Assembly (NCBI RefSeq): GCF_036351135.1
Contig: NZ_JAZBON010000022.1
Span: forward strand, 7,351 to 71,350
Origin: Erythrobacter sp.
GTDB taxonomy: Bacteria > Pseudomonadota > Alphaproteobacteria > Sphingomonadales > Sphingomonadaceae
Length of the DNA: 64,000 nt
Reading direction: 5' to 3'
Both the position numbers and the translations under genes were made by a program. The notes beneath the pieces are model-generated. The model ran no database searches and had not been told where the DNA came from. It was given only the letters and a program-made list of their open reading frames with translations. How positions within the stretch are numbered: position 1 is the first letter of the stretch; every line of letters begins with the position of its first letter. Below, piece after piece: positions 6,626 to 40,429 of the stretch.

Positions 6626-6649
6626 TATGAGAATATAAGGGACACGATC

Positions 6650-7834: not shown

Positions 7835-7847
7835 GCCGCTACGGCCC

Positions 7848-20768: not shown

Positions 20769-21185
20769 CTAGCGGACCAACAGCGTCATGCTGTTGCTGC
20801 CGTCCTTACGCTCATAGGAGATACCCTCGCCCCAGGCCCGCACGATGGTAAGCCCGACGCCACCGCCGCTGACCGGGTCGGGGCCATCGAAGGGGGCTGG
20901 GGCCGTGGGATCGAATGGGTCGCCGTTGTCGCGTATCGATAGATGCACCCCGGCGTCGCCGGGCGACAGGACCAGCATCAGACACGCGGCCCGCGGCATG
21001 CCGCCATGGCGCAGCGAATTGCTGACCAGTTCCTCCACGATGATCGCCAGCTTCACCTTGCCGCGTGCATCGAGCCCGCTTTGCGGCAGGAAACGGCGCG
21101 TGAACCTCAGCGCCTGTGCGATGACGGGCTGCGGATCTCCGTCTTGTGCAAGATAGGCCGAAAATCGTGTCGGGTGATCCATCAA
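20769..21185 (-). CDS. RsbW/SpoIIAB-like serine protein kinase (HATPase_c anti-sigma-type)
   Basis: 138 aa. N-box EELVSNSLRHG, G1-like IRDNGDPFD, G2-like GGGVGLTIV. The size is typical of partner-switching kinases. Confidence 0.8.
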   Translation of the reverse strand: MMDHPTRFSAYLAQDGDPQPVIAQALRFTRRFLPQSGLDARGKVKLAIIVEELVSNSLRHGGMPRAACLMLVLSPGDAGVHLSIRDNGDPFDPTAPAPFDGPDPVSGGGVGLTIVRAWGEGISYERKDGSNSMTLLVR

Positions 21186-21221
21186 GCTATGCTACCATCG
21201 ATGCGCAAGATGGGGGGACAT

Positions 21222-21665
21222 ATGCGAACAGCAATCGTTCGGGCCGGCGCCGCCTTCGCGCTCATCATGGCGAGCCAGCCGGTGCTCGCGGAGGAAATCG
21301 GCCAGATCAAGAACGTCACGCAGGGCGGCGTCGAAGTGCAACGCGGCGACAAGAGCCTGCGCGGTGTCTCCGGATTTCGGGTGATGGAGGGCGACGTCGT
21401 CGTCACCGGAGCGCGCCAGCGGGTCGGCATCACTTTCCTCGACGATACCCGGATGGCGGTTGCCCCGGGCAGCCGGGTGGTCATCTCGCGATATCGGTAT
21501 GACCGCGCGCGCGAGACCGGCAGCTCGCTGATGCAGGTCGATCGCGGCGCCGTCGGAGTCGATTCGGGCAAGCTGTCCGGTTCGGGCCGGATGCGTTTCA
21601 AGACCCCGACCTCGACGCTCGGCGTGCGCGGCACGAGCTTCGTCATCGAAGTCGACGCCGAATGA
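21222..21665 (+). CDS. Secreted stand-alone FecR-domain protein
   Basis: The track ORF 20943-21665 overlaps the divergent kinase gene. The start at 21222 gives the signal peptide MRTAIVRAGAAFALIMASQPVLAEE. GQIKNVTQGGVEVQRGDKSL..VMEGDVVVTGARQRVGITFLDDTRMAVAPGSRVVISRY is a FecR-type beta-sandwich pattern. It has no TM segment and no anti-sigma N-domain. Confidence 0.8.
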   Translation: MRTAIVRAGAAFALIMASQPVLAEEIGQIKNVTQGGVEVQRGDKSLRGVSGFRVMEGDVVVTGARQRVGITFLDDTRMAVAPGSRVVISRYRYDRARETGSSLMQVDRGAVGVDSGKLSGSGRMRFKTPTSTLGVRGTSFVIEVDAE

Positions 21666-22270
21666 AGGCGGCTCTGGCGCTTGCAGGCATGCTCGTCCTC
21701 GCGGGCTGCGCGACCTATTCGGAGCGCGTGACTTTGCTCGAACCGGTGCAGGCGGAGAAGCGCGCCGGCGGCGAGATCGGGGCGGTCGCGATCCTCGCAG
21801 AGGACGGTTCGGAAACGTTGATCGATGCGGCGGGCGAGCAGGCGCAACTGGGTAGCGGCGCGCCGCGGATCGTGCAGCTTGCCGCCGCCGATCCGTTGCA
21901 TACGGCGATCATGGCCGATCTCCCGCGCGAACGTAGCAGCGTCAGCATCGCCTTTCGCACCGGCCAGTCCGCGCTCGATCCCGAACAGATCACACAGCTT
22001 ACCCAGTGGGCGCTCAGCGATGGCGAGGCGGGGCCGCGACCGGGCAGCGAAATCGTGGTGCGCGCCTATGCCGATGCGTTCGGTTCCGAAGAGGAGAACC
22101 TTGCCTTGTCGCAGGAGCGCGCCCGCGCCGTCGCCGCGCAATTGCGCGCTGCCGGTCTCGACATCGAAAAAGGCGCGGCGCAGGGAATGGGCGAATATGC
22201 CGCGCAGGCAGATACCGGCGACGAGGTGCGCAGTCCCAAATGGCGCCGGGTGGACGTCATCATCCGCTAG
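21662..22270 (+). CDS. OmpA-family lipoprotein (peptidoglycan-binding C-terminal domain)
   Basis: 202 aa. ATGA overlap with the fecR-like stop. Lipobox LVLAGC. The C-terminus VVRAYADAFGSEEENLALSQERARAVAAQLRAAG...RRVDVII is OmpA_C-like. Confidence 0.8.
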   Translation: MKAALALAGMLVLAGCATYSERVTLLEPVQAEKRAGGEIGAVAILAEDGSETLIDAAGEQAQLGSGAPRIVQLAAADPLHTAIMADLPRERSSVSIAFRTGQSALDPEQITQLTQWALSDGEAGPRPGSEIVVRAYADAFGSEEENLALSQERARAVAAQLRAAGLDIEKGAAQGMGEYAAQADTGDEVRSPKWRRVDVIIR

Positions 22271-22284
22271 GACCCCTACGCGCA

Positions 22285-24351
22285 TCACGCTGCCTCTTCG
22301 CCGAGATAGCGCAGCGCCAAGATGGTCAGGTCGTCCGCCGGATCGGTGCCGCGTTCGAACGCTCGCACCTGGAGCGCGAGGTCCTGTGCGCGGATCTGTG
22401 CGCTATTGTCGCCGCTTTGCGCCAACGCCGACATCACGCCGTTGAGGCCGAACCGCGCACCCCTTGCGTCGGAGGCATCGGTCGCGCCGTCGGAGATGAC
22501 GACCAGCGTTTCGTCCGGGGCGAGGGTCAGGCTTTCCACGCGGTAGGGAAAGCCTTCGAACGTGCGCATCCGCACCCCCCCGCGCATTGCCGCGACCTCG
22601 ACCCGGCCATCGGCGCGCACGATCAATGGGTCCTCGTGCCCGGCATTGATCATCTGTACTTCGCCGCTTGCACAGTCGATCACGCCTACCAGTAGGGTCA
22701 GGTCCATTTCCTGGTCCTCCTCCGCCATCAACTCGTCGTTGACCCGCCGGATCGCGGCCTCGAGGTCGTGGCCCATGCGCATCACGTTGTTCTTGGACAC
22801 CGATTTGGAGAGCGCCATGAAGAGAGCGGCGGGCAGACCCTTTCCGCTGACGTCGCCGACAAGGAAGGCGAGGCGATCGTCGCCGAGATCCATCGCGTCG
22901 TAGAAGTCGCCGCCAACGGATCTCGCAGGTTCGAGCACTGCGCCGATCTCGGTCCGCCTGCCGAGCTGCGCGAGCCGGGCAGGGCTGGGCACCATGGTCA
23001 GCTGCAAGGCTCTGGCGCTTTCGTTTTCCTTTGCCTGTTCTGCGGCGAGGATGCGTTTTTCGATCAGCTCGATCACCATGAGGCTATAGCGCGCCAGCAA
23101 CAGGGCGAGGGCGGCACATCCGGCGATGAGGAGCGGGCGGGCGGGATCGAGAAGAAGGTTCGCGCGTGCGAACAGGGCGAAGGAGGCGAACGGCAAGACG
23201 AGTGCGCCAAGCGCGGCCGCGACGAGCCATCTGTTGTTCGCGGTGACACCCGCCGCAAGAAATAGCGCGATCAGAAGGGCGGCAATCGCGACTTCGATGG
23301 CGGTGATCCAGGCGGGACGCGCGAGCCAGTTGCCCGTCAGGATCGCATCCACCGCCTGTGCTTGAACGAGCGTCCCCTGAACCTCGCCCGCGAGCGGCGT
23401 TGCGACGATATCGCTCGTGCCCGTCGCGCCAAAGCCGACGAGCACGATCTTGCCCGAAAATTCGCCCGGCGCGACCTTGCCGCGCAGCACTTCGATGGCG
23501 GGTATGGCGAGTGCTTCCCACCCTCGTGCCATGCGAAAGGCGAAATGCGCCCTGTCATCGCCAGGGACCACCCGGTCGCCCACCGCCATCCCGCCCTTCG
23601 TCCAGCGCAGATCGGCATTGCCCCCAACCTGCGCCGCTAGAACAGGAGTGAAGCCTGGTGCGGTTTCTCCGCCAGCGATCACGCCCAGCGGAACCCGCCG
23701 TGTGACGCCATCCGGATCTGGCGGCGCGCTGACGATACCGCGCGCCAGGGCGACATCGTCGAATGCCGGCAGGCTGGTCAACATGCGCTGCGTGCGAATA
23801 GCTCCTGCCGGGAGCGTACCCTCGATATGTTCGAAGGTCAGCTCGCTTGCCGGCCTTCCGCCCTCTTGCGAAACCACCCAGGGCATCACCACGGGCGAGG
23901 ACGCGATGACATCGGCAAGGGCATCGTCGCCCGATGGAAGCGCGCCGATCCGTTCGCGCGTTGCCGGATCGATCGCGTCCTCGGTGTAAAGCTCGAGGAA
24001 GGAGGCCGGCCGCAAACGATCTGGCTCGACGAAAAAGATATCGACGCCGATCGCCGCAGGATCGGCCGCTGCGATACGCTCCAGCAGGACCGCGACATCG
24101 TAGCGCCGCCAGGGCCATTCGCCGATCGCGGCGACGCTGGGATCGTCGATCATCACCACCGCGACCCGATCGGCCGATGCCTCCAATGGTGCGAGCCGTT
24201 GCCAGCCGTCGAAAACGAGACGGCGCTGGAAGTCGCCCGCGACGAGGCTCAGCAGCACTCCGAAGATGGCGCCGCCGAGGATCGCGGCGGCGAGGATGCG
24301 GCGGGCGGCCCGGCCGCTGCCGGGCTCAGACCTCGACACAAAGCCCGTCAT
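22285..24351 (-). CDS. CHASE2 sensor fused to PP2C/SpoIIE-type Ser/Thr phosphatase (RsbU-like)
   Basis: 688 aa. N-terminal TM segment, then a periplasmic CHASE2-like region (RVAVVMIDDPSVAAIGEWPW..AIGVDIFFVEPD), then a three-helix TM block. The C-terminal part carries GGDFYD, GDVSGKGLPAALFM, NAGH and VISDGATD. Its start overlaps the upstream MBL gene by 26 nt. Confidence 0.85.
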   Translation of the reverse strand: MTGFVSRSEPGSGRAARRILAAAILGGAIFGVLLSLVAGDFQRRLVFDGWQRLAPLEASADRVAVVMIDDPSVAAIGEWPWRRYDVAVLLERIAAADPAAIGVDIFFVEPDRLRPASFLELYTEDAIDPATRERIGALPSGDDALADVIASSPVVMPWVVSQEGGRPASELTFEHIEGTLPAGAIRTQRMLTSLPAFDDVALARGIVSAPPDPDGVTRRVPLGVIAGGETAPGFTPVLAAQVGGNADLRWTKGGMAVGDRVVPGDDRAHFAFRMARGWEALAIPAIEVLRGKVAPGEFSGKIVLVGFGATGTSDIVATPLAGEVQGTLVQAQAVDAILTGNWLARPAWITAIEVAIAALLIALFLAAGVTANNRWLVAAALGALVLPFASFALFARANLLLDPARPLLIAGCAALALLLARYSLMVIELIEKRILAAEQAKENESARALQLTMVPSPARLAQLGRRTEIGAVLEPARSVGGDFYDAMDLGDDRLAFLVGDVSGKGLPAALFMALSKSVSKNNVMRMGHDLEAAIRRVNDELMAEEDQEMDLTLLVGVIDCASGEVQMINAGHEDPLIVRADGRVEVAAMRGGVRMRTFEGFPYRVESLTLAPDETLVVISDGATDASDARGARFGLNGVMSALAQSGDNSAQIRAQDLALQVRAFERGTDPADDLTILALRYLGEEAA

Positions 24352-25309
24352 AGGAGCACAGGACTTCGAGCGCCGCTTCTTTGCGCGTCAGCTCTTCGTA
24401 GCGCACCGTTTCCGCGTGAATGCCCTCGATATCCTCATCGCTATAGGTCGGCTCGTGGTGGAACAGGGCCAGCCGCTTCGCGCCCGCCTGGTGACACAGA
24501 TCGACCGCTACGAGATTGGAGGAATGACCCCAGTCCTCTTTCATCGACACGCTGTCGGCGAGCGAATACATTGTGTCGGCGATGACCAGGTCGACGCCGG
24601 AGAAGAAGTCGACCATGGCATATTCCTCGTCCATCTTGTCGATCTTGTATTCCGCGTCGGTCGAATAGACCGCGCTCGCTCCGCCCGTATCGCGGAAGCG
24701 GTAGCCGTAGCTGGTGTGGCTGTGCTCCTGCTCGATCATCGCGACGGTCAGCTCGCCGATCTGATAGTCGCGGCCCGTCTCGAGCGTGCGGAACTCGATA
24801 TCGGCCTTGAGCCAGTCAAAGGGGACCGGAAAGGAGATTTCTTCCTGCTGCCGGCGCAAGGCTTCCTCCGCATCGCGGTGGCCGGCATGGACGATCACCT
24901 TCGCCCCTTCGAGGAAGGCGGGCACGAAGAAGGGGAAACCCATTATGTGATCCCAATGGAGATGCGAAAGGAAGAAATGCCATTCCTTCGGGCGCTTGCC
25001 CTCGGCCAGGCGGCGCAGCGCATCGAGGCCGAGTTCGCGCAGGCCCGATCCCATGTCGCAGATGACGAAAGCGCCGCGACCGACATCGATCTCGACGCAG
25101 CTGGTGGCTCCGCCGTAACCTTGGCCGATGCTAAAAGGGAGATCCTTGCGGACGTAGTCGAGCGCCGCATCTCTATCGGAAAAGCTGCGCGACCCGGCTT
25201 CGACCAACGCGGCCGCAACCTTGTCGGCGATCGTATCTGCGTGCGGCGCCACTGGCAGAGAGCCGCGCGTGCCCCAAAACCGGATCTGCATATTTCCCCC
25301 CAAAGTCAC
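24326..25309 (-). CDS. MBL-fold metallo-hydrolase
   Basis: 327 aa. IRFWGTRGSLP, FLSHLHWDHIMGFPFF (HxHxDH motif), and a C-terminal LFHHEP. The real start may be the Met at 25291. Confidence 0.8.
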   Translation of the reverse strand: MTLGGNMQIRFWGTRGSLPVAPHADTIADKVAAALVEAGSRSFSDRDAALDYVRKDLPFSIGQGYGGATSCVEIDVGRGAFVICDMGSGLRELGLDALRRLAEGKRPKEWHFFLSHLHWDHIMGFPFFVPAFLEGAKVIVHAGHRDAEEALRRQQEEISFPVPFDWLKADIEFRTLETGRDYQIGELTVAMIEQEHSHTSYGYRFRDTGGASAVYSTDAEYKIDKMDEEYAMVDFFSGVDLVIADTMYSLADSVSMKEDWGHSSNLVAVDLCHQAGAKRLALFHHEPTYSDEDIEGIHAETVRYEELTRKEAALEVLCSYDGLCVEV

Positions 25310-25333
25310 GCAGGCGGGAACATGCCGCCCGCC

Positions 25334-25822
25334 TTAGCTTCCGACTGCATCCTCCACCGTATCTGCGACCTGGAAGACCATGTCATAACGGCTGATCGCG
25401 AGGATTTCACTCATCGTCTCGTTCGGACTGGCGAGAACGATTGTCGTGCCGCTTTCCCCGGCAGCGCGCTGCGCCAATGTCAAAGCGCGAAGTCCGCGCG
25501 AAGACATGTATTCGATCCGCGACAGATCGAGAACGACCCTGTCCGAGCCGGTCTGAACCGCATCGATCAAATGCGCCCGAAACGCATACGCCGTCGTTTC
25601 ATCGACCCGTCCCGCCGGCTCGAGCACGATCACGTTGCCTCGCTGGCTCTGCGACCAGTCCAATGCACCACCCGTCATCAGATGTGCATAGCGTGCGGCC
25701 GGCCGATTGCCAAATGGCCTCGGCGCCCTGCCAGCATCAAGGCGCGGGCCGGAGGGGAGAGTACGGTCAAACACGCCGAGGACGGGCGCAATAGCAGCGA
25801 TATCTTGCATCATGATTTCCAA
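25334..25822 (-). CDS. STAS-domain protein (RsbV/SpoIIAA-like anti-anti-sigma antagonist)
   Basis: The C-terminal ~110 aa (VIVLEPAGRVDETTAYAFRAHLIDAV..RVVLDLSRIEYMSSRGLRALTLA) match the STAS fold, with the phosphorylatable Ser context MSSRGL. An alternative start at 25678 would give a canonical 114-aa protein. Confidence 0.75.
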   Translation of the reverse strand: MEIMMQDIAAIAPVLGVFDRTLPSGPRLDAGRAPRPFGNRPAARYAHLMTGGALDWSQSQRGNVIVLEPAGRVDETTAYAFRAHLIDAVQTGSDRVVLDLSRIEYMSSRGLRALTLAQRAAGESGTTIVLASPNETMSEILAISRYDMVFQVADTVEDAVGS

Positions 25823-26270
25823 TTATCCTGGCGTTGGCATCCCAGGCTAACGAACCAGAACAGCAGAATATGAATTTTTTCCCAACGCAGCGTCCATCGA
25901 AGCGTCCGATCGGCAAACCTGCAGGGCTCCCACCTTGTGATTAGGATGAATTGCCGTGAAGCTGCGAAAACTTGTGAAAACGCGACAAAGTGCTCGCATT
26001 TGCCTCGTTTTGCCGGCGAACGCCTTGTTTTTGCCATTCAGGCAGCTATCAGCGTTTGCGGAGATTACGCGATGACGGCGAGGCGGCGTATCAAACGGCA
26101 TCAGACCGTTCGCCTCCTTCGATCGCTTCTTGTCGAAAACCCGGGTCGCATTGGGGAGCGGGGCGCCGCGCGCTTCCGTGTTGAGAATATGGGGGATATT
26201 CTTGGTCGATAAGCAACCTCTCGGGGGCAAGGGGCCATCTCGCGTCAATCTGGTCGCTCGGCAGCGCCGG
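25823..26270. promoter_or_regulatory. ~450-bp divergent control region between the STAS operon and tpsB
   Basis: The longest non-coding gap in the window, and visibly less GC-rich (runs such as gaatatgaattttttccc and gtgattaggatgaattg). No credible ORF: track ORFs 25810-26037 and 25847-26302 have no family features. Confidence 0.45.
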
Positions 26271-28061
26271 ATGTTTGCCGGCGTAGCGTCGACGCTCGGC
26301 ATTGCGGCAGGCGCGCTTGTTCCTGCGGCAGCGGCTCGCGCTCAGGATCAGGTTCCGCCACAACTTACCCCGCCGCCGCGCACTCAGCTGACCCCGCCCG
26401 AACAACGGCGCGACGAACGCCCCACCACGCTGACGATCGACGGCGATCTCGAGCGTACGCCCTGCGTGCTCGACCGGGCGGAATATGCCAATATTACGCT
26501 GACCTTAAGCGGGGTCGATTTCGCCGGGCTCGAACGCGTGCCGGGCCTTTCGCTGGACGAGGCGTATGACGGGTATCTCGGGCGCGAACTGCCGCTTGCC
26601 GTCATGTGCGACATTCGCGCGCAGGCAAACGCCATTCTGCGCTCTCAAGGCTATCTGGCGACGGTCGAGATACCGGAACAGAACCTGAGCGACGGCGTAG
26701 CGGATTTTCGCGTCGTTTTCGGCCGTCTTGCGGCGCTGCGCGTGCGCGGAGATGCCGGGCCTTCCGAGGCGCTGGTCGCCTCCTATCTGGAAAAACTGAC
26801 CGAGGCCGACGTCTTCAACACGCAGGATGCCGAACGCTACCTGCTGCTCGCCGACGATCTGCCCGGAACCGACGTGCGCCTTTCTCTGCGCCCGGCGGCG
26901 GACGGCGAGCCGGGTGATCTGCTGGGCGAAATCGCGGTGGTGCGCAGGCGCGGCCAGGTCGATTTCAACATTCAGAATTTCGGTTCGGAAACGCTCGGAC
27001 CCTTCGGCGGATTGTTGCGCGGTGAGCTGTTCGACCTCACCGGCCTGGGCGATCGCACCACGCTCGCAGTTTTCAGCACAGTCGAGTTTTCCGAACAGCA
27101 GACTTACCAGCTTGGCCACGATTTCGCGGTCGGCAGCGAGGGGCTACGCCTGGGCGGACAGGTGACCTATAGCGAGACCGACCCCGACCTCGATCTCGAT
27201 GGCTTCGACCTTAAGTCCGAGACGGTGCTCGCAACCGTGTTCGCATCCTACCCGCTCGAGCGTTCGCGCCGCACATCGACAGTTCTGAGCGGCGGGTTCG
27301 ATCTGGTCGATCAGAACGTCGAGTTGAACGACTTCACGCTTTCGCGCGACCGGGTGCGCACGCTGTACGCGCGGATCGACACCAACTGGACCGATTTTGC
27401 GAGCATTCGCAATATCGGCGGTTACAACGCTTTCGAGCCGCGCTGGCGCGCGCGTTTGGCGACCGAGTTGCGTCAGGGGATCGACGTGTTCTCCGCAAGC
27501 GAGGATTGTCGCGCAGATCCACTTGCCTGCACCGCGGATGGCGCCGCTCCGCCAAGCCGGATCGAGGGCGATCCGACGCCGCTGCTCGCGCGGTTCAGCG
27601 CCGGTTTCGAATATCGACCGACGCCGCTCTTTACCGTCGCGCTCGATGCGAGCGCGCAGATCGCCGCCGATCCGCTGCCGGCCTTCGAAGAATATGCAGG
27701 CGGCAGTTTCTCGATCGGCCGCGGTTACGATCCCGGTTCGGCGCTGGGCGACGATGGCGTCGGCGCCGCCTTCGAGCTGCGTTACGGCTCGCTCGCGCCC
27801 GCGGCGGTGGATGCCGTCGCGGTTCAACCTTACGCCTTCACCGATGTCGTCGTGACCTGGAATCAGGATCCCAGCCGTGTTGCCGCCAATCCCGACGAGC
27901 TTTGGTCCGTCGGTGGAGGAATGCGCGCGATCTGGGGCTCTAACCTCCAGGCCGACGCCTTCGTGGCGGTCCCGCTCGAAAGGCCGGACCTGGCCCTCGA
28001 GAAGCCCGACGTGCGCTTCATGTTCTCGATCACCGCTCGCCTCGTACCCTGGAGATATTGA
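26271..28061 (+). CDS. TpsB outer-membrane transporter (ShlB/FhaC/HecB family)
   Basis: The start at 26271 gives the signal peptide [25 protein letters not shown]. This is followed by a Pro-rich linker, a POTRA-like region ([16 protein letters not shown]...[32 protein letters not shown]) and then a beta-barrel ([25 protein letters not shown]...). C-terminal aromatic residues ...LVPWRY. Confidence 0.85.
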
Positions 28062-28062
28062 T

Positions 28063-31000: not shown

Positions 31001-34000
31001 TCGATATCGTCATTCTCGGCGATGCGAGTTTGCTCACGGACACGTTTGGCGGCTCGGCCATAAGTGGGGACGGCGGTGATGCGGTCGGCGGCCAATCCTC
31101 CACTATTATCCAGGACCGCGAGGCAGCGTTCGGTTCGATCGACATCGGGGGCGATGTATTTCTTCAAACTTCGGGTTTCGGCGGCTCGACCGTCAACGGC
31201 CTCACCGGCGGTTCGGGTTTTGGCGGACGGGGGCGTGTCCTTGTCGACAACAGTACCTTGTTTGCGGATCGGATATTCATGTCTGCTCGGGGAACGGGCG
31301 GTACCGGAGCACAAAGTGGCGGCGCTGGGAATGCTGGCGAACTGATAGTCAATGTGGCGCTCGGCACTGTCGATGTAACGGCACTTTCGATGAGCGCTAT
31401 CGGTACTGGCGGCGATGCTTCCGAAGCGGGCGGAACTGGCGGCGTCGGCCGTGGAGGTCTTGCACAAGTTTTCGTCGGGGGATCTGAAACGGAAAGTGCC
31501 AGCCTTCTCGTCGATACTGACCTGCTCCTCCGAGCAGGCGGCTCGGGCGGCAACGGCGGACCGGGCGGCGCGGGCGGCGATGGTTTTGGCGGTCGACCAG
31601 ATGTCGAAGAAGAGGGCGGCGCGTTCATCCTTGTCGGCCGCGACAATGCTTCGCTCATTGTAGGCGGGGATATCAGCGCCAACTTCGGGGGCTTCGGGGG
31701 CGCGGGAGGCGATGGCCTCGCCTCGGGCGGGAGTGGCGGCGATGGCGGTAACGCTACGGGTGGCGAGGGCCTGCTCTCGATCCAAGCCCTAGGGTTCGGC
31801 GGAGCTTCGATCGACAACGGTTCGATAAGCGCAGCAAACATATTCATCTTCGATAATCCCATCGGCGGCGATGGCGGGGCGGCCGGGAGAAGCACTGATG
31901 TTCAGGGCAATGGCGGTAATGCGGCCTCGGGTTCGGCTATGATAAGTCTCGATGGCGGATCGCTCACCGCGACCGGGCGCATCACCGCCCAAACGAACCC
32001 TGACGGTGGCGATGGCGAGGTGGGTGGATCGGCGATAGCGGGCGACGCGAGCTTCTCCGCCGTCAATGCCGATGTTCAGAGTGACACGCTCGAGATACTA
32101 GCCTTTGCCTTCGCGCGTTTCGGAACCGTTGCTGTCGGAGATACCGATGGGGGTTCGGCCAGTCTGTTCGTGGATGGCGGCAACATCGATGTGAATTCTG
32201 TTTTCTTGAATGCGAATGCTGACTCAGGTGCAGATCTCTCGACTGCTGCTGGAGGGATCGCCGATGCGGGTCGTGCGAATTTCGATATTTTCGGCGATGC
32301 AATCGCTGATATCGGCACCGCTTTCATTTTGGCTAACGGCTTTTCTTCTGACGGGGGAAGCGCCTCGGGCGGGGTGGTGAATGTCAATATCGGTGATGTC
32401 GAATTCACGGGCGCGCCTCAAGTAAACGTCGGCACCCTGGTTGTGAGCGCCGAAGCGACCGGTGGCTTTGACAGCGGCCCGGCAAACAGCGTCGGCCGTT
32501 TCACAATCGATATCGACGACGGCGAACTCGCCGTTACCAATTTCACTGGTACAGCGCTCGGTAGCGACGATTTCGGTGAGCGTGGTTCCTCGAATATCTC
32601 GGCGACCGGCGGCGATTTCCTCGTCAGCGGGACTTTCGACGTCGATGTTCGCAACAGTTTCCAGATCGAAACCGCCAACGGCAACATCATCGGCGGTCCT
32701 TCGCTGTCAGCACCCACCGCGCAGATCACGATCGATTCAGGTAGAACGATCGTCATAGACGGCGATAACGATGCGGCGATCGGCTTCGGCGGGGCGTCGC
32801 TCTCGCTTACTTCCGAGGATATCGCGATCAACTTTGGCGCGCGTATCGGCGCGCCGGTCATGAATTTCGCTTCGATCGCGAACGATGGCCTTCCCACCAT
32901 CCTCGGCGGCGATCCTTCTCTCGTCGAAGGCGAATATGCGCTGACACAGGACGAGATCGCACGGCTCGAGGTCGGTCGGTTCAACTTCTTCGCGCCGACG
33001 ATTACCGAAGCAGGCGCCGACGAGGCCGACCTTCTCATTCGCGATGCGACGATCGTGGGATCGGGCGACGATGGTGCGTTCAGCGTCAACATCTTCGGTT
33101 CGGGCGGTATCGCCCGGGTCGAAGGGCAGGTCGACTACATCGACGCTCTGAGCACAGACAGCCTGTCTTTCTCGAATTTCGAGCGAATCGAAGTGGTAAC
33201 GCCGGGACGCGTTACGATCACCGACAGCGATATTCTGCCATCCGGTTCGCTTACCCTTGAGGCGGACAATGTTTGGGTCGCCGATGCGAGCTTGATCGCA
33301 CAGCTTCGGGCCGATCCTGATTTTGCCGGACGGAACGAGGCTCTCGCCACGGCTGGCGGGGGCGGTCCCGGTTCTGTCGTCGCAGATGAGGTTACGATAC
33401 GGATCGCAGATCAACTTCTTGTAGCCAATGAGGGCGAAGTCGGAGAAACTCGCGGAATTCTTGTCGGATCCGGCGGCTTGTCGATCTCCGGCCCCGAAGA
33501 CAGCTTTTCCCCCTCGACGTTGGATGTCTTCGCCTATGGCGCGCGGCTCGATGGGTCGGGTGAGTTCGTCGATGGCGAAACGTTCTTCAACGAAGTTGAA
33601 TTCTTCGGCGGCGGGTCCGAGCCGGCCAGCTATACGGACGAGTCTTCGTTCAACGATTGCCTCATCAGTTCAAGCGATTGCGGCACCATAATCAACCCAA
33701 CACCCACGCCAACGCCAACGCCAACGCCAACGCCAACGCCAACGCCAACGCCGACGCCCACACCGGCGCCGACGCCTACGCCTGCGCCCACTCCGACACC
33801 TACGCCTGCGCCCACTCCAACGCCGACGCCAACGCCGACGCCGACGCCGACGCCTACGCCTACGCCTACGCCCACACCGACACCGACACCGACGCCTACG
33901 CCGACACCTACACCAACGCCCACACCGACCCCGACGCCTACACCGACACCGACACCGACGCCTACGCCTACGCCCACGCCCACTCCGACGCCAACACCGA

Positions 34001-34350
34001 CGCCTACGCCTACACCGACGCCGACGCCGACGCCGGCACCGCCTCCGATCTCGGGGCCACCGCCACCACCGCCGCCGCCCGAGCTGCCGCCGGAAGTGCA
34101 GGTTGTGTTCGAGCAGATTACCAATGAAGAGGTCGTCGAAGCCGCTGTTTCGTCGGCGGTTCCGGTTCCGATCAGCGGGGAGGAGAGCAACGAGGAATTC
34201 GGCCTCGACTTCCCTGCTTTCGTCGAAAGCGATGAGATCGACGAGGAAACGGATGTCGGCGATGCCGTCGCCTCGGGCGGCGATTCCTCTCTCTACCGAC
34301 CGCAGACCGGCACCGTCGAAGTCGGAGAGGAGGCATCCGATGACCAGTGA
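28063..34350 (+). CDS. TpsA-type giant exoprotein (filamentous-haemagglutinin-type TPS domain, Gly-rich beta-helix-like repeats, Thr-Pro linker, acidic tail)
   Basis: The track ORF begins at 27877 inside tpsB. The ATG at 28063, 1 nt after the tpsB stop, gives [36 protein letters not shown]. The TPS-domain pattern is [16 protein letters not shown]...ATFQNSS...[24 protein letters not shown]...[28 protein letters not shown]. 2095 aa in total. Confidence 0.85.
33697..34047 (+). repeat. Coding (Thr/Ala-Pro)n dipeptide repeat, about 57 units, followed by a poly-Pro stretch (to 34095)
   Basis: Reading frame CCN-ACN/GCN repeated from 33697 (cca aca ccc acg cca acg ...) to 34047. The codons are a mixture of cca/ccg/cct/ccc and acg/aca/act/acc. 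The longest perfect hexamer run is (ccaacg)x6 near 33709-33744. Confidence 0.95.
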
Positions 34351-37300
34351 AGTCGTGAGGAGGCTGTTTGCCCTATGCACCGCGGCGGCGGTCGGGCTCA
34401 CTGCGATGTGGTCCGCCCCCGGCCCGGCGCAGTCCGCGAAGCAGCAGTCGATCAGCCTGCGCGATACCTTCCCGATTGGCTCCAACGGCCTTTGCGAAGC
34501 GCAGATCCAGGCGCCCGAAGAAGGCGCGGGCCTGTTCGATCGGCGCTACGACATCCTGTGCCGCGACGCGGCAGCGGCGATCGGAACGATGTGGATCGTA
34601 CGCGGCCGGATGGCCGACAGCGCCGCAGAACGCTTCGTCGGAACCGGCGCCTCGTGCACCGAACGCGAGGACGCGGAGATGCCGCCGGGGCTGGCGGACG
34701 GCAAGCGTCTGATTTGCGCACGGCCGGGCAGCGTCATCCGCACCGAATTGCTGGTCGGCGAACGCGGCAACCGGACGTTCGCCGCCACCGGCCTGTCGGC
34801 CTATTCGCGCGCGCTCGAGCTGGGCGTCGCCTCGCTTGCGACCGACCGGGTGGTTCCCGGCGAGGTCGACATTCCGCTTACGCAGACCACCGATTCCCTC
34901 GCCTTCGTTCGTCAGCAGGCGACCTCGATTACCGCAGACCAGTCCCTTGCCGAGGCCTACCGCCGCTCCAATGCGGGCGAATTCGCAGAGGCGGCGGAAT
35001 TCTTCGCTGCCAGCGCCGATGCTCTCGATGGTGCAAGCGAGACCGAAGCGCGCCTCAACGAGGGGCTGCTGCAATCCAATCTTGGCAACTACGCCGAGGC
35101 GCGTCGCCGGTTCGACGCGGCCCGCGCGACATCTTCGGCAAGCCCGGTGCTGGCACGCCTACAGCGCAATTACGAGGCGATCGACGCGCTCAATCAGTCC
35201 GAGCCGGAGCGCGCGCTCGCCTTGCTCGCCCAGCCGCTTGCCGCGGATTTCGGGGAGACTTCCGCGATCCGCAACCTGCAGATCGGCTCGGCGCTTGCTC
35301 GGCGGCTCGCCGCGGAAAGCGAGAGCGCGACCGATCCGGCGTTGTCGCAAGCGCTCACGCCGCTCGAACGTGCGCAATTGCTCGATGGGCAGGCTGACTA
35401 CCTGGGTGCCACGGCGCTAAGGCTGAGTGGGCGCAACCAAGAGGCCGCCGAGCGACTGATGCGCGCCAATACGACGCTTGCCGAAGTGCGCGGCGGACGG
35501 GTTGTCTCGATCCTTTGGCTGCGCGCCCAGGTCCTGAGCGAACTTGCCGAACTCTCCGAATTGTCGGGCGATCTCGCGCGGGCCGAAGCCTTGCACGGCC
35601 AGGGCATCGCGTTGCTGGCCGACGCCTATCCCGATTCGCCCGCCTTCTACAGCGCCAATGCGCAACTTGCGGGCTTTTTCGCGCGCAACAATCGGAGGGG
35701 TGAAGCACTCGATCTCTACCGCGATATCGTTGCGCGGGCGGAAGGACGACCGGCGACAGTCCTACGCACCTACCTCGCCGATTATTTCGACCTTCTCCTG
35801 GGCGACGCAGCGAGCGCCGATGCGGCGGGCGATCTGTTCGCGGCGAGCCAATTGCTGCTTCGCCCGGGCCTTGCCCAAACGCAGGCCGTGCTCGCGCGTG
35901 AGCTTTCGGGTGGCAGCGACGAGGCGTCCCTGCTGTTCCGGCGCAGCGTCAATCTGGGCCGCGCGGTTGAACGCATGCGTGCCTCGATCGTCGAGGTCGA
36001 AGGGCAGGCGGACGTCAATCCGCAGGCCGCCGCGGCGCTCATCGAACGCCGCGAGAGGCTCGATGCGCTTGTCGAGCGACAGGCCGAGGTGCTGCAGAAG
36101 CTTGCGGAATATCCGCGTTTCCGCGCGGTCTCCGGCGGCGCGTTGAGCCTGGAAGGGATGCAGGCCATTCTCGGCGGCGATGAAGCCTATGTGAAGATGG
36201 TCGCGCTCGATGGCGATGTTTACATGGTCTACATCACGCCAAACGATGCGTTGGCCTACCGTGTGGATGCGACGCCAGAACAGCTCGAAGGCATCGTTCA
36301 GACCCTGCGCGAAAGCATCGCCATCGCCGATGGTGGGCAAGTCACCACCTTCCCGTTCGATCTGGCGACCTCGCGTGAGCTTTATGTGCGGCTGTTCGAA
36401 CCAATCGCCGACCGCTTGCCGACCCATCGCCATATCATCTTCGAACCCGACGGCGCTATGCTCAAGCTGCCGATTAATCTGCTGGTGACGAACGATGAGA
36501 GCGTCGAGCGATACGAGCAGCGCATCGCGCAGCCCGAGGCGGACGAATACGATTTCCGTGGTGTCGCGTGGCTCGGCCGCGCCTCGCAAATCAGCACGGC
36601 AGTCGCGCCAACGGCGTTCCGCGACGTGCGCGCCGCACCGCCGAGCGACGCGATCAAGGCCTATCTTGGCCTCGGAGAAAACACGCCGATCGGCGACGGA
36701 CCCGTTGGCACCGCGCGGACACGTTCGGCGCTCGCAGGGGGCGAGAACTGCATCTGGTCACCGGCGATCTGGTCGAACCCGATCCAAGCGGATGAGCTTT
36801 ACGACGCCGCATCCCGTTTCGGCGGAGCAGGGTCGGACCGTGCGGACGTATTGACGCAAGACGCCTTCACCGACGCGCGGATCGAGGAACTCGGCAATCT
36901 GAGCGAATATCGCATCCTCCATTTCGCGACGCACGGTCTCGTCACCGCGCCTGAACCCGAATGTCCGCCGCGCCCGGCGCTGCTGACCTCGTTCGGCGAC
37001 GGGGATTCGGACGGCCTTTTGAGCTTTTCCGAGATTTTCGGTCTGCGGCTCGATGCCGACCTCGTCATCCTTTCGGCCTGCGATACCGCCGGGAGCGCAA
37101 CGGTAGGCGCGACGCTGGAGGCCGGCATTACCTCGGGAGGCGACTTTGCGCTCGACGGGCTGGTGCGCGCCTTTGTCGGCGCCGGGGGACGCACGGTGCT
37201 GGCGAGCCATTGGCCGGTCCCCGACGATTTCGATGCCACCAAGCGACTGATCGGCGGACTCTTCGACGAGGGCGACAGCGAAACTGCTGCCGCGTTGCAG

Positions 37301-37402
37301 CGCTCGCAACTGGCGCTGATGGACGATGCGGAAACTTCGCATCCTTTCTATTGGTCGGCATTTGCGATCGTGGGTGACGGTTCGGTAAAGGTCACGCGCT
37401 AG
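34340..37402 (+). CDS. Exported TPR-CHAT domain protein (caspase-like Cys protease fold)
   Basis: The start at 34340 (GGAGAGGAGG RBS) overlaps the tpsA stop by 11 nt. Signal peptide [32 protein letters not shown], in which RRLFA is weakly Tat-like. The central part is helical and TPR-like. The C-terminal CHAT domain has its His (ILHFATHG, about 36920-36937) and Cys ([11 protein letters not shown], Cys codon 37079-37081) intact. Confidence 0.85.
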
Positions 37403-37548
37403 GGTACAGGCGCTCGCGCGTGAAAGGCGTTCGCGTTGTTGCGAGGGGGACAGGTCACTAGCCCGCCCTTGCGCTGGAACGGCGGGTTGGCTTTGGCTTG
37501 AGCGGTGGAGCTTAGCTCGGATGCCAAGCCGATGAGGGGGGATACAAA

Positions 37549-39690
37549 GTGGTCGACGACGCGACTGTGCCGCCCGTCGCGGCGCGGGAAAGCGATAGCG
37601 AAGAGCGCCGCCGCAAGCGCGCGAGCGTGTCCGCACGCCTGATCCGCGGAGTGCGCGAGGCTGGCGCGCCGCAGCTGGCCGCGACCGTTTTCTTCGTGCT
37701 CTTCTCGATTTTCATCGCGCGCTACAGCTGGGTCCTGCCCTTCAGCGCCGAACCTACGCCGATTACCAACGATGCCGAGCGCGCGCTCTATGATACGCGC
37801 GCCTATCTTTCCGCGGACTTGGTCGAGCAGGACGATCGTATCATCCTCGTCGTCTACGACGATCAGGCGCTCATCAATCTGGAGAAGCGATCGCCACTGC
37901 CGCGCGATGCCCTATCCGAGGCACTGCGCAACCTAGATGGCATGGGCGCGAAGGCGATCGGCATCGATATCCTGTTCGATCAACCGCAATCCGAAGATCC
38001 CGAGCTGGTCGAGACCTTGCGGGCGATGCAGACGCCGACCTCGGTCGCCTATGCTACGGTGGCCACCAACGAGGCGGACATTTCCTATGAGCAGCAGCTC
38101 TATCTCGACGAGTTCATGGCCGCGATCGAGGAAGGCGACACTGATGTGCGGCGCGCAAGCATTCGCCTTGACGACGAGTTCGGGGCGACCCGGGTCTGGC
38201 CCGACATCGTCCCCGAGCTGCCGCCGCTCCTTGGTCGGGCGATGCTGGCCGATGCCGGTGGGCCCTACGAAGCCTTTGAAGGCTACGAGGGCGCCATCGA
38301 ATATCGCCGGGCCTTGCGGGCTGGTCTCAACGAAGGCGAGGCGGATGCGCGTGCCGATGTCGAGGAACCGCTCTTCCAGACCCTTTCCATCGAGCTGTTT
38401 CTCGATCTCGATCCCGCGGTGGCCGCGTTCGTCGCGCAGCAGATCGAGGGGCGCTATGTCCTCATCGGCGGCGACATTCTCGACTATGACCGGGTGGTGA
38501 CCCCGTTCACGCCCTGGACCGGTTTCGAGCCTTCGGGACTTTCGGTGCACGGCGAGATCATCGCCCAGATGCTCGACGATTCCCCCTTGGTTCAAATACC
38601 AACTTATGCGCTCTGGTTCATGGCGATCCTCGTCGTGGCAAGCGCGGTCGCGGTCGCGCTGCTCGAATGGCCGGCACGAAAGCTCGTGCCCGTGCTGCTT
38701 ACGCTCGGCATTCTCTATCTCGGCTTGCCCTTCCTCCTCCATTTCTACGATGTCGACACCTACGGCTTGCCCGCGGTCGGCTGGCTTGTCGGATGGATCA
38801 TCTCCTTCACCGTCGTCACAGCCGCGGCGCGCGCGGCCGGCGCGGCCAAACGAAGTTTCGCGCAAGGGGCGCTCGGCAAGTACATTCCCGCCGACATCGC
38901 CAATGCCATCATGGAAGAACCCGAACTGCTTTCGCTGGGCGGTGAGAAGCGCAACATCTACGTGCTCTTCAGCGACCTCGAAGGCTTCACCAAGATGAGC
39001 CACGCCATCCCGCCGGAAATGGTCGCCAAACTGCTCAACCGCTATCTGGAAATGCTGAGCAAAGTGGTGCTCGATCATGGCGGAGTGATCGACAAATATG
39101 TCGGCGATGCGGTCGTCGCCTTCTGGGGGGCGCCGATCGCGCGGCCCGACGATGCGCAGCGCGCGGCCAAGGCGGGATACGCGATGTGGCAAGCGGGCGA
39201 GGCGTTTCGCGCGGAGGTCGCCGCGATGGATCCCGACCTGCCGCCGATCGGCAAGACCCGCGTGGGGCTGCATTACGGCGAAGCGGTGGTCGGCAATTTC
39301 GGCGGCGAAACGCGCATCCAATACACCGCTCTCGGCGACAGCATGAACACGGCCGCCCGGCTCGAGGCGGCGAACAAGCCGCTTGGCTCGAACGTCACGG
39401 CGAGCCGCGAATTCATCGAACAGTCGAACCCTGAAGACTGGGTGCCGATGGGTCGGATCGTGTTGCGTGGACGGGCGCGACCGGTCGATATCTATCAGCC
39501 TCGGCCCGACTTGTCGGCCGAGGATCGGCGCAAACTCGAAGAGGCCGTTCAGGTTTCGGATACGAACGCCGTGCTAGCCGCGCGGCTTGTCGACGAAGTC
39601 GCTGCTGGCAATTCGGGCGATTTGGCGCTAGAAAATTACAGCAATCGAATACGACATTTGAACGATGGGGGTGCATATGTTCTCGGTTAG
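37549..39690 (+). CDS. CHASE2 sensor fused to class III adenylate/guanylate cyclase
   Basis: 713 aa, GTG start with GAGGGGGG RBS. CHASE2-like region RIILVVYDDQALINLEKRSPLPR..AIGIDILFDQP, then a three-helix TM block. Cyclase motifs: IYVLFSDLEGFTKMS, DKYVGDAVVAFWGAP, VGLHYGEAVVGNFGG, YTALGDSMNTAARLE. Confidence 0.9.
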   Translation: MVDDATVPPVAARESDSEERRRKRASVSARLIRGVREAGAPQLAATVFFVLFSIFIARYSWVLPFSAEPTPITNDAERALYDTRAYLSADLVEQDDRIILVVYDDQALINLEKRSPLPRDALSEALRNLDGMGAKAIGIDILFDQPQSEDPELVETLRAMQTPTSVAYATVATNEADISYEQQLYLDEFMAAIEEGDTDVRRASIRLDDEFGATRVWPDIVPELPPLLGRAMLADAGGPYEAFEGYEGAIEYRRALRAGLNEGEADARADVEEPLFQTLSIELFLDLDPAVAAFVAQQIEGRYVLIGGDILDYDRVVTPFTPWTGFEPSGLSVHGEIIAQMLDDSPLVQIPTYALWFMAILVVASAVAVALLEWPARKLVPVLLTLGILYLGLPFLLHFYDVDTYGLPAVGWLVGWIISFTVVTAAARAAGAAKRSFAQGALGKYIPADIANAIMEEPELLSLGGEKRNIYVLFSDLEGFTKMSHAIPPEMVAKLLNRYLEMLSKVVLDHGGVIDKYVGDAVVAFWGAPIARPDDAQRAAKAGYAMWQAGEAFRAEVAAMDPDLPPIGKTRVGLHYGEAVVGNFGGETRIQYTALGDSMNTAARLEAANKPLGSNVTASREFIEQSNPEDWVPMGRIVLRGRARPVDIYQPRPDLSAEDRRKLEEAVQVSDTNAVLAARLVDEVAAGNSGDLALENYSNRIRHLNDGGAYVLG

Positions 39691-40429
39691 GAAAAGGGCC
39701 CGCCTGGCGGGTGTCGCCCTGGCGGGCATCATGCTTGCGGGAAGTGCGGCGGCGAATGCCGGCGTGGTGGTCAAGTCGTCCGGTCCGTCTGCGGACCAAT
39801 ATCCGGTGGGAGAGGAAGTCGCCGACAGCTCGACGATCTCGCTGCGCGCGGGCGACAAGATTACCGTGCTGACCGATCGCGGCACGAAGGTCATGCAGGG
39901 ACCGGGCACGTTTCGCGTCGGCGAACGGCCGACCCGAACGCGCGCCCGGCTTACCAACATGACGCGGCGCAACGCGGCGCGCGGCGCCCGCACCGGGGCC
40001 GTGCGCGGCTCGGGCGGCAGCAGCGGCCCGGATACCATTCCCAATCTCTGGCTGGTCGATGTGACGAGGGGCGGGCCGACCTGCCTTTACAATCTCGACC
40101 GCGTCCGTTTGTGGCGCCCGGTCTCGGAAGAGGCGCAGACCTATCGCATCTCGCAGGTGGGTACCAACGAGGCGCTCGACGTGGAATTCGTCGGGACCGA
40201 AAGCGTGCGCGCGCTCGATCCGGCTGGGCTTCAGCTGATGAACGGTCAGAGCTACACGATCACCGGTCCCGCTTCCGAAGGCGGCTCGATGCCCAATGTC
40301 GAGATCAGGGTAATCGAGATGACCGAGGCCTTCCGTCAACCGGCTGAGCTTGCAAGGGCGCTGGTCGCCAACGGTTGCATGTCACAGGTCGCGGTCCTCG
40401 GAAACACCGCCGAAGCCGAGGCGTCGTAG
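39677..40429 (+). CDS. Secreted protein of unknown function, co-transcribed with the CHASE2 cyclase
   Basis: The start at 39677 overlaps the cyclase stop by 14 nt. Signal peptide MFSVRKRARLAGVALAGIMLAGSAAANA. The N-terminal part (ISLRAGDKITVLTDRGTKVMQGPGTFRV) only weakly recalls FecR-type strands. An Arg/Gly-rich linker is followed by a second beta-rich half. Confidence 0.65.
   Translation: MFSVRKRARLAGVALAGIMLAGSAAANAGVVVKSSGPSADQYPVGEEVADSSTISLRAGDKITVLTDRGTKVMQGPGTFRVGERPTRTRARLTNMTRRNAARGARTGAVRGSGGSSGPDTIPNLWLVDVTRGGPTCLYNLDRVRLWRPVSEEAQTYRISQVGTNEALDVEFVGTESVRALDPAGLQLMNGQSYTITGPASEGGSMPNVEIRVIEMTEAFRQPAELARALVANGCMSQVAVLGNTAEAEAS

Follow-up and report, generated by a model that had tools for sequence, protein, structure and literature searches.

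Two adjacent gene modules in an Erythrobacter genome

Eleven genes at positions 20769 to 40429 of a 64,000-nucleotide stretch of Erythrobacter sp. DNA (contig NZ_JAZBON010000022.1; the whole stretch is called the window below) encode two CHASE2 receptors together with a two-partner secretion (TPS) pair, an exported TPR-CHAT protein, and the components of a partner switch. We divide the region into module A (20769-25678, six genes) and module B (26271-40429, five genes). The explanation we put first, and regard as about an even call, is that these are two independent envelope-signaling modules lying side by side: module B would combine a TPS fiber, a CHAT protease, and a cyclic AMP (cAMP) read-out, and module A would be a partner switch. 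The features of the region are as follows.

20769-21185, minus strand: RsbW-like serine kinase or anti-factor, module A (Pfam PF13581 HATPase_c_2, 5e-11)
21222-21665, plus strand: secreted FecR-domain protein of ~147 amino acids (aa) with a Sec signal peptide, module A (Pfam PF04773, 2.9e-9)
21662-22270, plus strand: OmpA-like peptidoglycan-binding lipoprotein with lipobox LAGC, module A (Pfam PF00691, 3e-10)
22285-24351, minus strand: phosphatase with a CHASE2 domain, three transmembrane (3TM) segments, and a PP2C domain of the SpoIIE/RsbU type, module A (CHASE2, 3.3e-42; SpoIIE, 1.5e-38)
24326-25291, minus strand: metallo-β-lactamase (MBL)-fold hydrolase, module A (Pfam Lactamase_B_2, 6e-16)
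25334-25678, minus strand: STAS protein of the anti-anti-sigma type, module A (Pfam STAS, 1.5e-15; TIGR00377, 1.4e-18, above cut-off)
25972-25993, plus strand: cis-element TTGTGAAAACGCGACAAAGTGC, conserved upstream of tpsB, a candidate operator or promoter element
26271-28061, plus strand: tpsB, outer-membrane transporter with a signal peptide, module B (POTRA_2 PF08479, 7.6e-8; ShlB PF03865, 2.3e-8)
28063-34350, plus strand: tpsA, TpsA-like exoprotein of 2095 aa with a signal peptide and a divergent TPS domain (family profile), module B
34340-37402, plus strand: exported TPR-CHAT protein, a predicted caspase-like protease with a Sec signal peptide, module B (Pfam CHAT PF12770, 1.1e-48)
37549-39690, plus strand: CHASE2-3TM protein with a predicted class IIIb adenylate cyclase domain, module B (CHASE2, 2.1e-24; Guanylate_cyc PF00211, 3.6e-15)
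39677-40429, plus strand: p250, secreted protein with two predicted β-sandwich domains, module B (no Pfam or NCBIfam match; gene overlaps the cyclase gene)

The genes are tightly packed. The FecR-domain and OmpA-like genes of module A are coupled by an ATGA overlap, and the CHASE2-PP2C, MBL, and STAS genes overlap or nearly abut one another on the minus strand, with the MBL gene overlapping the start of the CHASE2-PP2C gene. In module B, tpsA follows tpsB in the same orientation after a gap of 1 nt, tpsA and the CHAT gene overlap by 11 nt, 146 bp separate the CHAT and cyclase genes, and the cyclase and p250 genes overlap by 14 nt. An earlier annotation made from the nucleotide letters (the sequence-only reading) had described 13 contiguous genes; its coordinates and couplings were essentially borne out, but the gene count is 11. 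The 450-bp control region that it had proposed is a real divergent intergenic region, of ~450 to 590 bp depending on the choice of start codon. Its domain assignments were largely upheld by Pfam searches, which confirmed HATPase_c_2, FecR, OmpA, both CHASE2 domains, SpoIIE, Lactamase_B_2, and STAS, as well as POTRA_2 with ShlB, CHAT, and Guanylate_cyc. The TPS and TPR assignments, however, have no Pfam match in the window proteins, and they are held by an orthologue profile (TPS) and by structure and homologues (TPR). No sigma factor, toxin/immunity pair, or transposase was found at 20769-40429, as that reading had stated. The G+C content of the window is ~64%, and the region is flanked by ordinary housekeeping metabolism genes. 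An antisense open reading frame (ORF) of 368 aa at 21182-22288 on the minus strand, lying over the FecR-domain and OmpA-like genes, has a coding-like G+C content at third codon positions (GC3) of 0.77 and no Pfam match; other genomes have the FecR and OmpA genes annotated on the opposite strand, and the ORF was taken as spurious for that reason.

Module B is conserved as a unit, and module A occurs on its own

Scanning the genomes of GTDB species with a TpsB alignment brought up at least 496 relatives. We took the best 80 loci with 10 kb on either side; they all belong to Erythrobacteraceae or closely related Sphingomonadales. Sequence beyond tpsA is sufficient in 56 loci, and 53 of these have CHAT after tpsA; a CHASE2 cyclase gene stands directly after CHAT in 20 of the 32 that extend past CHAT. 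Full sets of the five module B genes are present in E. litoralis, Sphingobium, two metagenome-assembled genomes (MAGs; L098 and L099), and Niveispirillum. The order in Sphingobium herbicidovorans is Crp/Fnr, CHAT, CHASE2 cyclase, p240, TpsB, TpsA, and in Niveispirillum cyanobacteriorum (Rhodospirillales) it is MBL, TpsB, TpsA, CHAT, p226, CHASE2 cyclase. Module B is thus conserved, with its order permuted, in Erythrobacteraceae, Sphingobium, and Niveispirillum, and a linkage that persists through three gene orders points to a functional unit.

The trio tpsB-tpsA-CHAT is the most persistent core of module B. It was found inside type VI secretion system (T6SS) clusters in Sphingomonas parapaucimobilis (L003, 2301-15347, between tssH and tssK) and in the betaproteobacterium Caballeronia grimmiae (L094, 7315-17537, between tssJ and tssA), and trios that have no cyclase adjoin either a protein with multiple PAS domains (L084) or one with two domains that bind cyclic nucleotide monophosphates (cNMPs) (L072). 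The latter, 816 aa long and encoded at 6129-8579 on the minus strand, divergently from tpsB, combines its two cNMP-binding domains with pyridine-nucleotide-disulfide oxidoreductase and 4Fe-4S domains. ORFs of similar size occupy the equivalent position in L073 and L078, and L072, L073, and L078 all have no CHASE2 cyclase after CHAT. One CHAT protein of Agrobacterium and one of Pseudosulfitobacter have no TPS neighbors, and TpsB relatives of at most 31% identity (Azospirillum, Thalassospira, and Mesorhizobium) belong to plain TPS pairs or are orphans, with no CHAT gene. In Sphingobium, E. litoralis, and one MAG, genes for Cytochrome_C554-like, HbpS-like, and further large (multihaem) proteins come after the five-gene operon (L002, 30223-35090; L085, 17730-23057; L098, 14734-18150); they are absent from the window.

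Module A behaves differently. It adjoins tpsB in 11 of the 80 loci, all of them with a TpsB from the clade closest to that of the window, and 67 of the 80 have no module A gene within 10 kb; about 24 carry Peptidase_S46, DUF1826, and glucokinase genes upstream of tpsB instead. Intact copies, 42 to 50% identical, occur by themselves in Tsuneonella dongtanensis, Novosphingobium tardum, and a metagenome assembly (L087, L088, and L097), with no TPS, CHAT, or cyclase gene nearby. In the complete Erythrobacter chromosome CP121323.1, module A is located at 0.62 Mb, ~0.9 Mb from the nearer of the two tpsB loci (1.5 and 3.04 Mb). The gene-neighborhood comparison that the sequence-only reading had proposed as a check therefore divides its composite: the TPS, CHAT, cyclase, and small secreted protein genes are conserved as a unit, but module A mostly occurs apart from tpsB. 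With module A independent and module B linked, the region is best described as two modules that are neighbors in one sublineage.

TpsB and TpsA form a secretion pair with a conserved C-terminal cassette

TpsB carries a signal peptide and scored above the cut-offs of both PF08479 and PF03865, and 78 of the 80 tpsB loci scanned contain TpsA_N. The window TpsA taken alone matched no Pfam family and gave 17.8 bits on TIGR01901, against a cut-off of 29.1. A profile built from 12 orthologous TpsA N-termini, however, matched the solved TPS domains of EtpA (2.7e-24), HxuA (3e-19), and HMW1 (1.3e-12), and 6 of the 12 members, including the Niveispirillum orthologue (7e-25), matched PF05860 individually. 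The assignment as a two-partner (type Vb) secretion pair holds, for TpsA by way of the orthologue profile only, and export of TpsA is predicted.

Complete TpsA orthologues range from 855 to 3239 aa, with a middle part made of repeats rich in Gly, Ala, Thr, Ser, and Asp. The last ~100 residues are conserved, and comprise a Cys-loop, a Pro-rich linker, and an acidic tail. The Cys-loop has the form FNDC[VI]INTGxC, and C1866 and C1873 are the only cysteines of the mature window protein. The tail reads NNPtv...FGxDFP...DDPVxSGGDxSLY, and the last 60 residues have a median of 15 acidic residues and 1 basic residue. This C-terminal motif is kept in 55 of the 63 complete orthologues, and recognizable variants of the tail occur in Sphingobium and Sphingomonas. 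The linkers found at the same place in orthologues are poly-Pro, PT, PD, or Gly-rich and of very different lengths; the window protein has a (PT)n repeat of ~170 residues, and the GC3 of tpsA is 0.69, against 0.75 to 0.83 for its neighbors.

The TPR-CHAT protein is predicted to be an exported protease

The window CHAT protein is 63 to 77% identical to proteins of Erythrobacter and Qipengyuania. Its catalytic dyad is His865/Cys914, and among the 120 homologues listed HFATHG is kept in all and LSACDT in 119. A Sec-type signal peptide was read in all sampled N-termini of CHAT homologues, and the Niveispirillum orthologue has a lipobox. Export by the Tat route was considered, given an RR pair in the window signal peptide; the pair is not conserved in homologues, and Sec export was assumed for that reason.

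No Pfam TPR family matched the window protein, and such families match many of its homologues. An AlphaFold2 model of moderate quality (predicted local distance difference test [pLDDT] score, 65.6) has an N-terminal β domain, helical repeats at residues 186 to 600 (~400 residues), and the CHAT domain. Foldseek gave as best PDB matches DdvA (8rw5, the top match, 1e-8), separase, and Csx29, with E values from 1e-8 to 1e-5 and low TM-scores of 0.2 to 0.36. These features predict a catalytically intact, exported caspase-like protease, for which the TpsA tail is the putative substrate.

The module B receptor is a predicted adenylate cyclase paired with p250

The closest solved relatives of the cyclase domain are adenylate cyclases, namely 6fht (5e-32), CyaB (3r5g, 1e-30), and CyaC (1wc1, 3e-29). 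Its DKYVGD and YTALGD motifs align with DKFVGD and YTIIGR of CyaB from Pseudomonas aeruginosa. Class IIIb cyclases have Thr in place of Asp in the substrate-specifying pair, and since this Lys/Thr pair is kept, the protein is assigned to class IIIb, with cAMP as the predicted product. A Crp/Fnr gene adjoins the module B operon in Sphingobium, and the gene for the cNMP-binding protein adjoins tpsB in L072.

The adjoining protein, p250, matched no Pfam or NCBIfam model, and a profile search returned 1069 representative clusters at an E value of ≤1e-3. Its gene adjoins that of the CHASE2 cyclase in every neighborhood inspected. The AlphaFold2 model (pLDDT, 82.5) consists of two β-sandwich domains and C-terminal helices; Foldseek gave only generic fibronectin type III (FN3) or immunoglobulin (Ig) matches, above 1e-3, and no peptide-binding fold was recognizable. 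The sequence-only reading was right to place a small signal-peptide protein beside each sensor, but not in calling the second one FecR-like: hhalign of p250 against the FecR profile gave a probability of 2%, and the fold is unrelated. In one MAG (L099, 10001-11590) the p250 gene is followed by a second uncharacterized gene of 243 aa, next to a GAF-GAF-PAS cyclase gene on the opposite strand.

The two CHASE2 proteins share the arrangement of a transmembrane (TM) segment, a ~300-aa periplasmic domain, a 3TM block, and a cytoplasmic output domain, as predicted earlier; hydropathy placed the membrane segments at residues 15-43 and 343-432 of the PP2C protein and at 38-66 and 345-428 of the cyclase. 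The CHASE2 domains themselves are barely alignable, and what they have in common is limited to the short motif already noted in the sequence-only reading. By this comparison they are not recent paralogues. CHASE2 was described as a domain without a known ligand at the date of a previous report (PMC5192318), and nothing found here contradicts that statement.

Module A has the components of a sigma-independent partner switch

Module A encodes a PP2C phosphatase, a STAS protein with a phosphorylatable serine, and a GHKL serine kinase, which is the RsbU/RsbV/RsbW set. The GGDFYD motif of the PP2C domain, the YMSSRG motif of the STAS protein, and the kinase boxes are all intact, and the phospho-serine motif YMSSRG is kept in 13 of 16 STAS orthologues. 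The RsbW-like kinase, which also gave a subthreshold match to the NCBIfam model RsbA_anti_sig, is encoded in every module A copy examined, and the CHASE2-PP2C protein has 344 homologues of identical architecture. No cognate sigma factor was found in the region, its flanks, or five module A neighborhoods; a factor encoded elsewhere is possible.

On the periplasmic side, the FecR-domain protein (orthologues 47 to 69% identical) consists of a signal peptide and a FecR domain only, in ~147 aa. The region and its immediate flanks contain no extracytoplasmic function (ECF) sigma or transducer gene such as would make up a FecI/FecR/FecA system. The OmpA-like lipoprotein gave subthreshold matches to the YiaD, YfiB, and Pal models. 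The MBL protein is the most conserved product of module A (66 to 81% identity) and carries an HLHWDH motif. A profile search against PDB sequences matched RNase Z structures, and NCBIfam gave RNase_Z at 5.9e-16 and NF041851, a cyclic-nucleotide phosphodiesterase model, at 1.1e-14, both below the curated cut-offs. It probably belongs to the RNase Z/cyclic-nucleotide phosphodiesterase branch, and is a candidate output enzyme of the module. We infer that module A is a self-contained, sigma-independent partner switch.

A conserved element precedes tpsB

Upstream regions of 85 tpsB loci were searched for shared motifs. The window has a single copy of the element TTGTGAAAACGCGACAAAGTGC, an imperfect palindrome located 299 nt before the tpsB ATG; 0.03 copies are expected by chance. 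Its consensus of 17 to 22 nt is TTGTG[CA]AAA[CT]GCGACAA(AGTGC), and a single copy on the plus strand lies 236 to 421 nt upstream of tpsB in 41 of the 85 loci, regardless of which gene is upstream. A scan of the 85 regions for a CRP/Clr box (TGTGA-N6-TCACA) gave nothing conserved, and an 8-mer family that recurs often, GGTGATGCTCGC, was traced to the 3' end of an upstream coding gene in one synteny class and is not regulatory. No Rfam match at an E value of ≤1 was obtained for the long leader or elsewhere at 20 to 41 kb, and scans for sigma-70 promoters and terminators gave no more than expected from shuffled sequence.

DISCUSSION

What the sequences establish is which genes and domains are present, their catalytic motifs and export signals, and how these are conserved; the mechanism that follows is a proposal. 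In the two-module reading, TpsB would export TpsA as a long fiber of very variable length, and the C-terminal cassette (Cys-loop, Pro-rich linker, and acidic tail) would leave the periplasm last. There, the TPR-CHAT protein would most likely bind and cut this segment, on the model of regulated FhaB prodomain processing. The CHASE2 class IIIb cyclase, with p250 as its periplasmic partner, would sense the periplasmic consequence of secretion or processing and supply cAMP to Crp-type regulators. In module A, the OmpA-like lipoprotein and the periplasmic FecR-domain protein would feed or modulate the CHASE2-PP2C phosphatase, whose dephosphorylation of the STAS protein, opposed by the RsbW-like kinase, would set the STAS phosphorylation state; the cotranscribed MBL phosphodiesterase-like enzyme would be the probable output of the switch.

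Several observations weigh against this reading. Twelve of the 32 loci extending past CHAT have no cyclase there, so the trio can work without a cAMP output. Erythrobacter longus keeps a cyclase-p248 pair without the trio, and module A abuts this pair directly (L089, 4372-12563), so a cyclase with a p250-type partner can work without the fiber; the downstream genes (DCC1-like and FMN_dh) are syntenic with those of the window, which suggests that the trio was lost or inserted as a block. The acidic-tail motif is weak or different in the most distant trios (Niveispirillum and Caballeronia), so that recognition of the acidic tail by CHAT would not be universal. There is no Crp gene near the window operon, region flanks included, and the spacing of the conserved element, TGT-N9-ACA, is one base shorter than that of a CRP/Clr box (N10). 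The function of the MBL protein is ambiguous, with RNase Z and cyclic-nucleotide phosphodiesterase scores that are both far below the curated cut-offs.

The same components could also work from the outside in. The trio would then be a tripwire at the surface and not an adhesin accompanied by its maturation protease: perturbation of the fiber by contact, attack, or shear would lead CHAT to cut a retained TpsA C-terminus, and the fragment set free would activate the CHASE2 cyclase by way of p250 here and other outputs elsewhere; we consider this improbable, if worth serious attention. We think no better of a variant in which the physiological CHASE2 input, acting through p250, is either the cleaved fragment or the unoccupied state, and in which T6SS or PAS/cNMP-binding proteins would provide the outputs in other lineages. 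Such an arrangement would fit the position of the trio as the deepest conserved core, with partners that vary from CHASE2 cyclases to T6SS clusters, the multi-PAS protein (L084), and the cNMP-binding protein (L072). Both T6SS clusters that hold the trio, which come from two distant lineages, contain tagF, and one of the two has PP2C and kinase genes besides. The top structural match, DdvA, has been proposed to be a signal-activated site-1 protease (PMC11506125), and the CHASE2 cyclases of Sinorhizobium meliloti depend on an outer-membrane protein for the perception of a protein signal from outside. This is, however, an argument purely from gene neighborhoods; insertion into T6SS clusters could be incidental island architecture, E. 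longus has the cyclase pair without the trio, and p250 has no recognizable peptide-binding fold.

The sequence-only reading had gone further and proposed one composite bracketed by two CHASE2 sensors, in which all 11 genes form an integrated system and both receptors monitor the same fiber, one through the partner switch and the other through a cNMP. This would predict the tight packing and the common divergent control region that the window and 11 related loci display, and hints of cross-talk between the modules remain. In L014 and L018, tpsB is preceded by STAS and MBL genes without CHASE2-PP2C; in Niveispirillum, it is preceded by an MBL homologue of 33% identity; and in E. longus, module A abuts the cyclase pair. 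If the MBL protein is a cNMP phosphodiesterase, as its subthreshold match would have it, the two modules would control breakdown and synthesis of one messenger. We nevertheless find the composite doubtful: at least three unrelated genomic contexts have a complete module A by itself, it is far from the nearer tps locus in CP121323.1 and missing from the 10-kb surroundings of most tpsB loci, the CHASE2 domains are not recent paralogues by sequence, and the secreted partners are unrelated.

Three further possibilities concern single components. CHAT could be a clan-CD transpeptidase that removes the acidic C-terminal signal of TpsA and links the fiber covalently to the envelope, in the manner of a sortase; PorU of type IX secretion and the glycosylphosphatidylinositol (GPI) transamidase are the relevant comparisons. 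The short, strongly conserved extreme C-terminal motif after a flexible Pro-rich linker, on an otherwise hypervariable TpsA, would suit such a role, as would the overlap of the CHAT gene with tpsA and the invariant dyad. We think it unlikely, as transpeptidase activity is known for no CHAT protein and the TpsA motif has no hydrophobic segment and is not conserved in distant trios. A role in conflict with phages, of the Pycsar or caspase/TIR type, is brought to mind by the score of the cyclase on the PADLOC Pycsar PycC model (115 bits, 1e-33, against 56 bits on Pfam Guanylate_cyc), by faint or weak Anti-Pycsar_Apyc1 matches of the MBL protein, by a 670-aa TIR and TPR protein that takes the place of CHASE2-PP2C after STAS-MBL in Qipengyuania nanhaisediminis (L014, 6070-9436), and by the part that CHAT proteases play in CRISPR type III-E immunity. 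It is made very improbable by the absence of any other PADLOC match in the region and of an adjacent cNMP-binding effector, the neighbor of the cyclase gene being that of the secreted p250. The best alignments of the cyclase are with class IIIb adenylate cyclases, the CHAT, p250, FecR, and OmpA proteins are exported, both sensor domains are periplasmic, and the flanks are housekeeping metabolism. The least probable of the possibilities is contact-dependent inhibition by toxin delivery of the CdiB/CdiA type, which the TpsB/TpsA pair with its very large, variable exoprotein would suit: there is no VENN, pretoxin, or related motif, no toxin domain, and no immunity gene, the C-terminus is conserved and not polymorphic, and the gene downstream of tpsA encodes CHAT.

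Relation to known systems

The C-terminal region of FhaB stays periplasmic. The FhaB prodomain undergoes regulated degradation or removal by periplasmic and surface proteases (PMC8263021, PMC4542190, and PMC6070651). Like the FhaB system, module B pairs a TpsB transporter with a large β-helical TpsA that has a TPS domain near its N-terminus and, at the other end, a proline-rich segment and a conserved extreme C-terminus. The putative protease here is an operon-encoded, caspase-like TPR-CHAT protein whose gene overlaps tpsA, whereas FhaB is processed by a serine protease whose gene lies elsewhere; the tail motifs of the two exoproteins are unrelated, and module B adds a CHASE2 cyclase and p250.

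For the sensing half of module B, the closest experimentally studied parallel is that of S. meliloti. There the CHASE2 adenylate cyclases CyaK, CyaD1, and CyaD2 respond to an external protein-type signal and require the outer-membrane β-barrel protein NsrA (PMC7529298 and PMC13001267), and cAMP acts through the Crp-like Clr, whose regulon contains a periplasmic FecR-domain protein as well as a large TPR protein (PMC7529298, PMC5498481, and PMC13001267). Unlike module B, that pathway has no reported TpsA, CHAT, or p250. Queries with the window TpsB and CHAT proteins matched no Sinorhizobium plasmid record, and the cyaK/nsrA locus was not retrieved with the window proteins; the cyclase domain matches, and the CHASE2 domain is too divergent.

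DdvA is a periplasmic TPR-CHAT anti-sigma factor for which signal-activated periplasmic proteolysis has been proposed (PMC11506125). It has the same overall fold as the window CHAT protein and is the only characterized extracytoplasmic TPR-CHAT protein. DdvA is membrane anchored and fused to a zinc anti-sigma domain, with an ECF sigma partner that controls the cyclic-oligonucleotide-based antiphage signaling system (CBASS) and CRISPR, whereas the window protein is soluble or lipid anchored, comes without a sigma partner, and belongs with a TPS pair.

The sensing half of module A resembles the Burkholderia "BiofilmReg" operon, which encodes a response regulator, a LysM/FecR periplasmic protein, and a CHASE2 histidine kinase (PMC5192318). 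Both have a secreted FecR-domain protein beside a TM-CHASE2-3TM receptor. The output of module A, however, is PP2C, STAS, and RsbW in place of kinase and response regulator, and an OmpA lipoprotein replaces LysM. SiaABCD of Pseudomonas is a sigma-independent partner switch that controls a second-messenger enzyme, and YfiBNR is an envelope relay. Module A shares with the former a PP2C, a kinase, and a STAS-like protein without a sigma factor, and with the latter an outer-membrane lipoprotein, a periplasmic protein, and an inner-membrane enzyme; the matches of the PP2C protein to the SiaA model and of the OmpA protein to the YfiB model are weak and far below cut-off. Module A has no diguanylate cyclase, and its candidate output is the MBL-fold hydrolase.

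In the literature searched (hemagglutinin, and the top-ranked papers for TpsB, ShlB, or FhaC), no link between CHAT and two-partner secretion was found, in agreement with the sequence-only reading that no characterized system combines these domains; CHASE2 and CHAT appeared together only in a survey of cyanobacterial metacaspases. Every domain family discussed here, the adjacency of FecR and CHASE2, and signaling from CHASE2 cyclases to Crp are already published. What is new in the literature searched is the conserved operon of a TPS pair, an exported TPR-CHAT protein, a CHASE2 cyclase, and p250, which is reasonably widespread.

The CHAT proteins studied experimentally in the literature consulted are craspase, separase, and DdvA, and a Sec-exported TPR-CHAT protein associated with type Vb secretion is a new setting for the domain. 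p250 defines a sizeable family that has no Pfam or NCBIfam model, and the TPS trios within T6SS clusters hint at a reusable envelope sensor. Each CHASE2 receptor has its own coupled or adjacent secreted protein, and module B, with its TPS fiber and protease, offers a candidate source of the signal. It would thereby give a concrete handle on the input of CHASE2, an orphan sensor domain.

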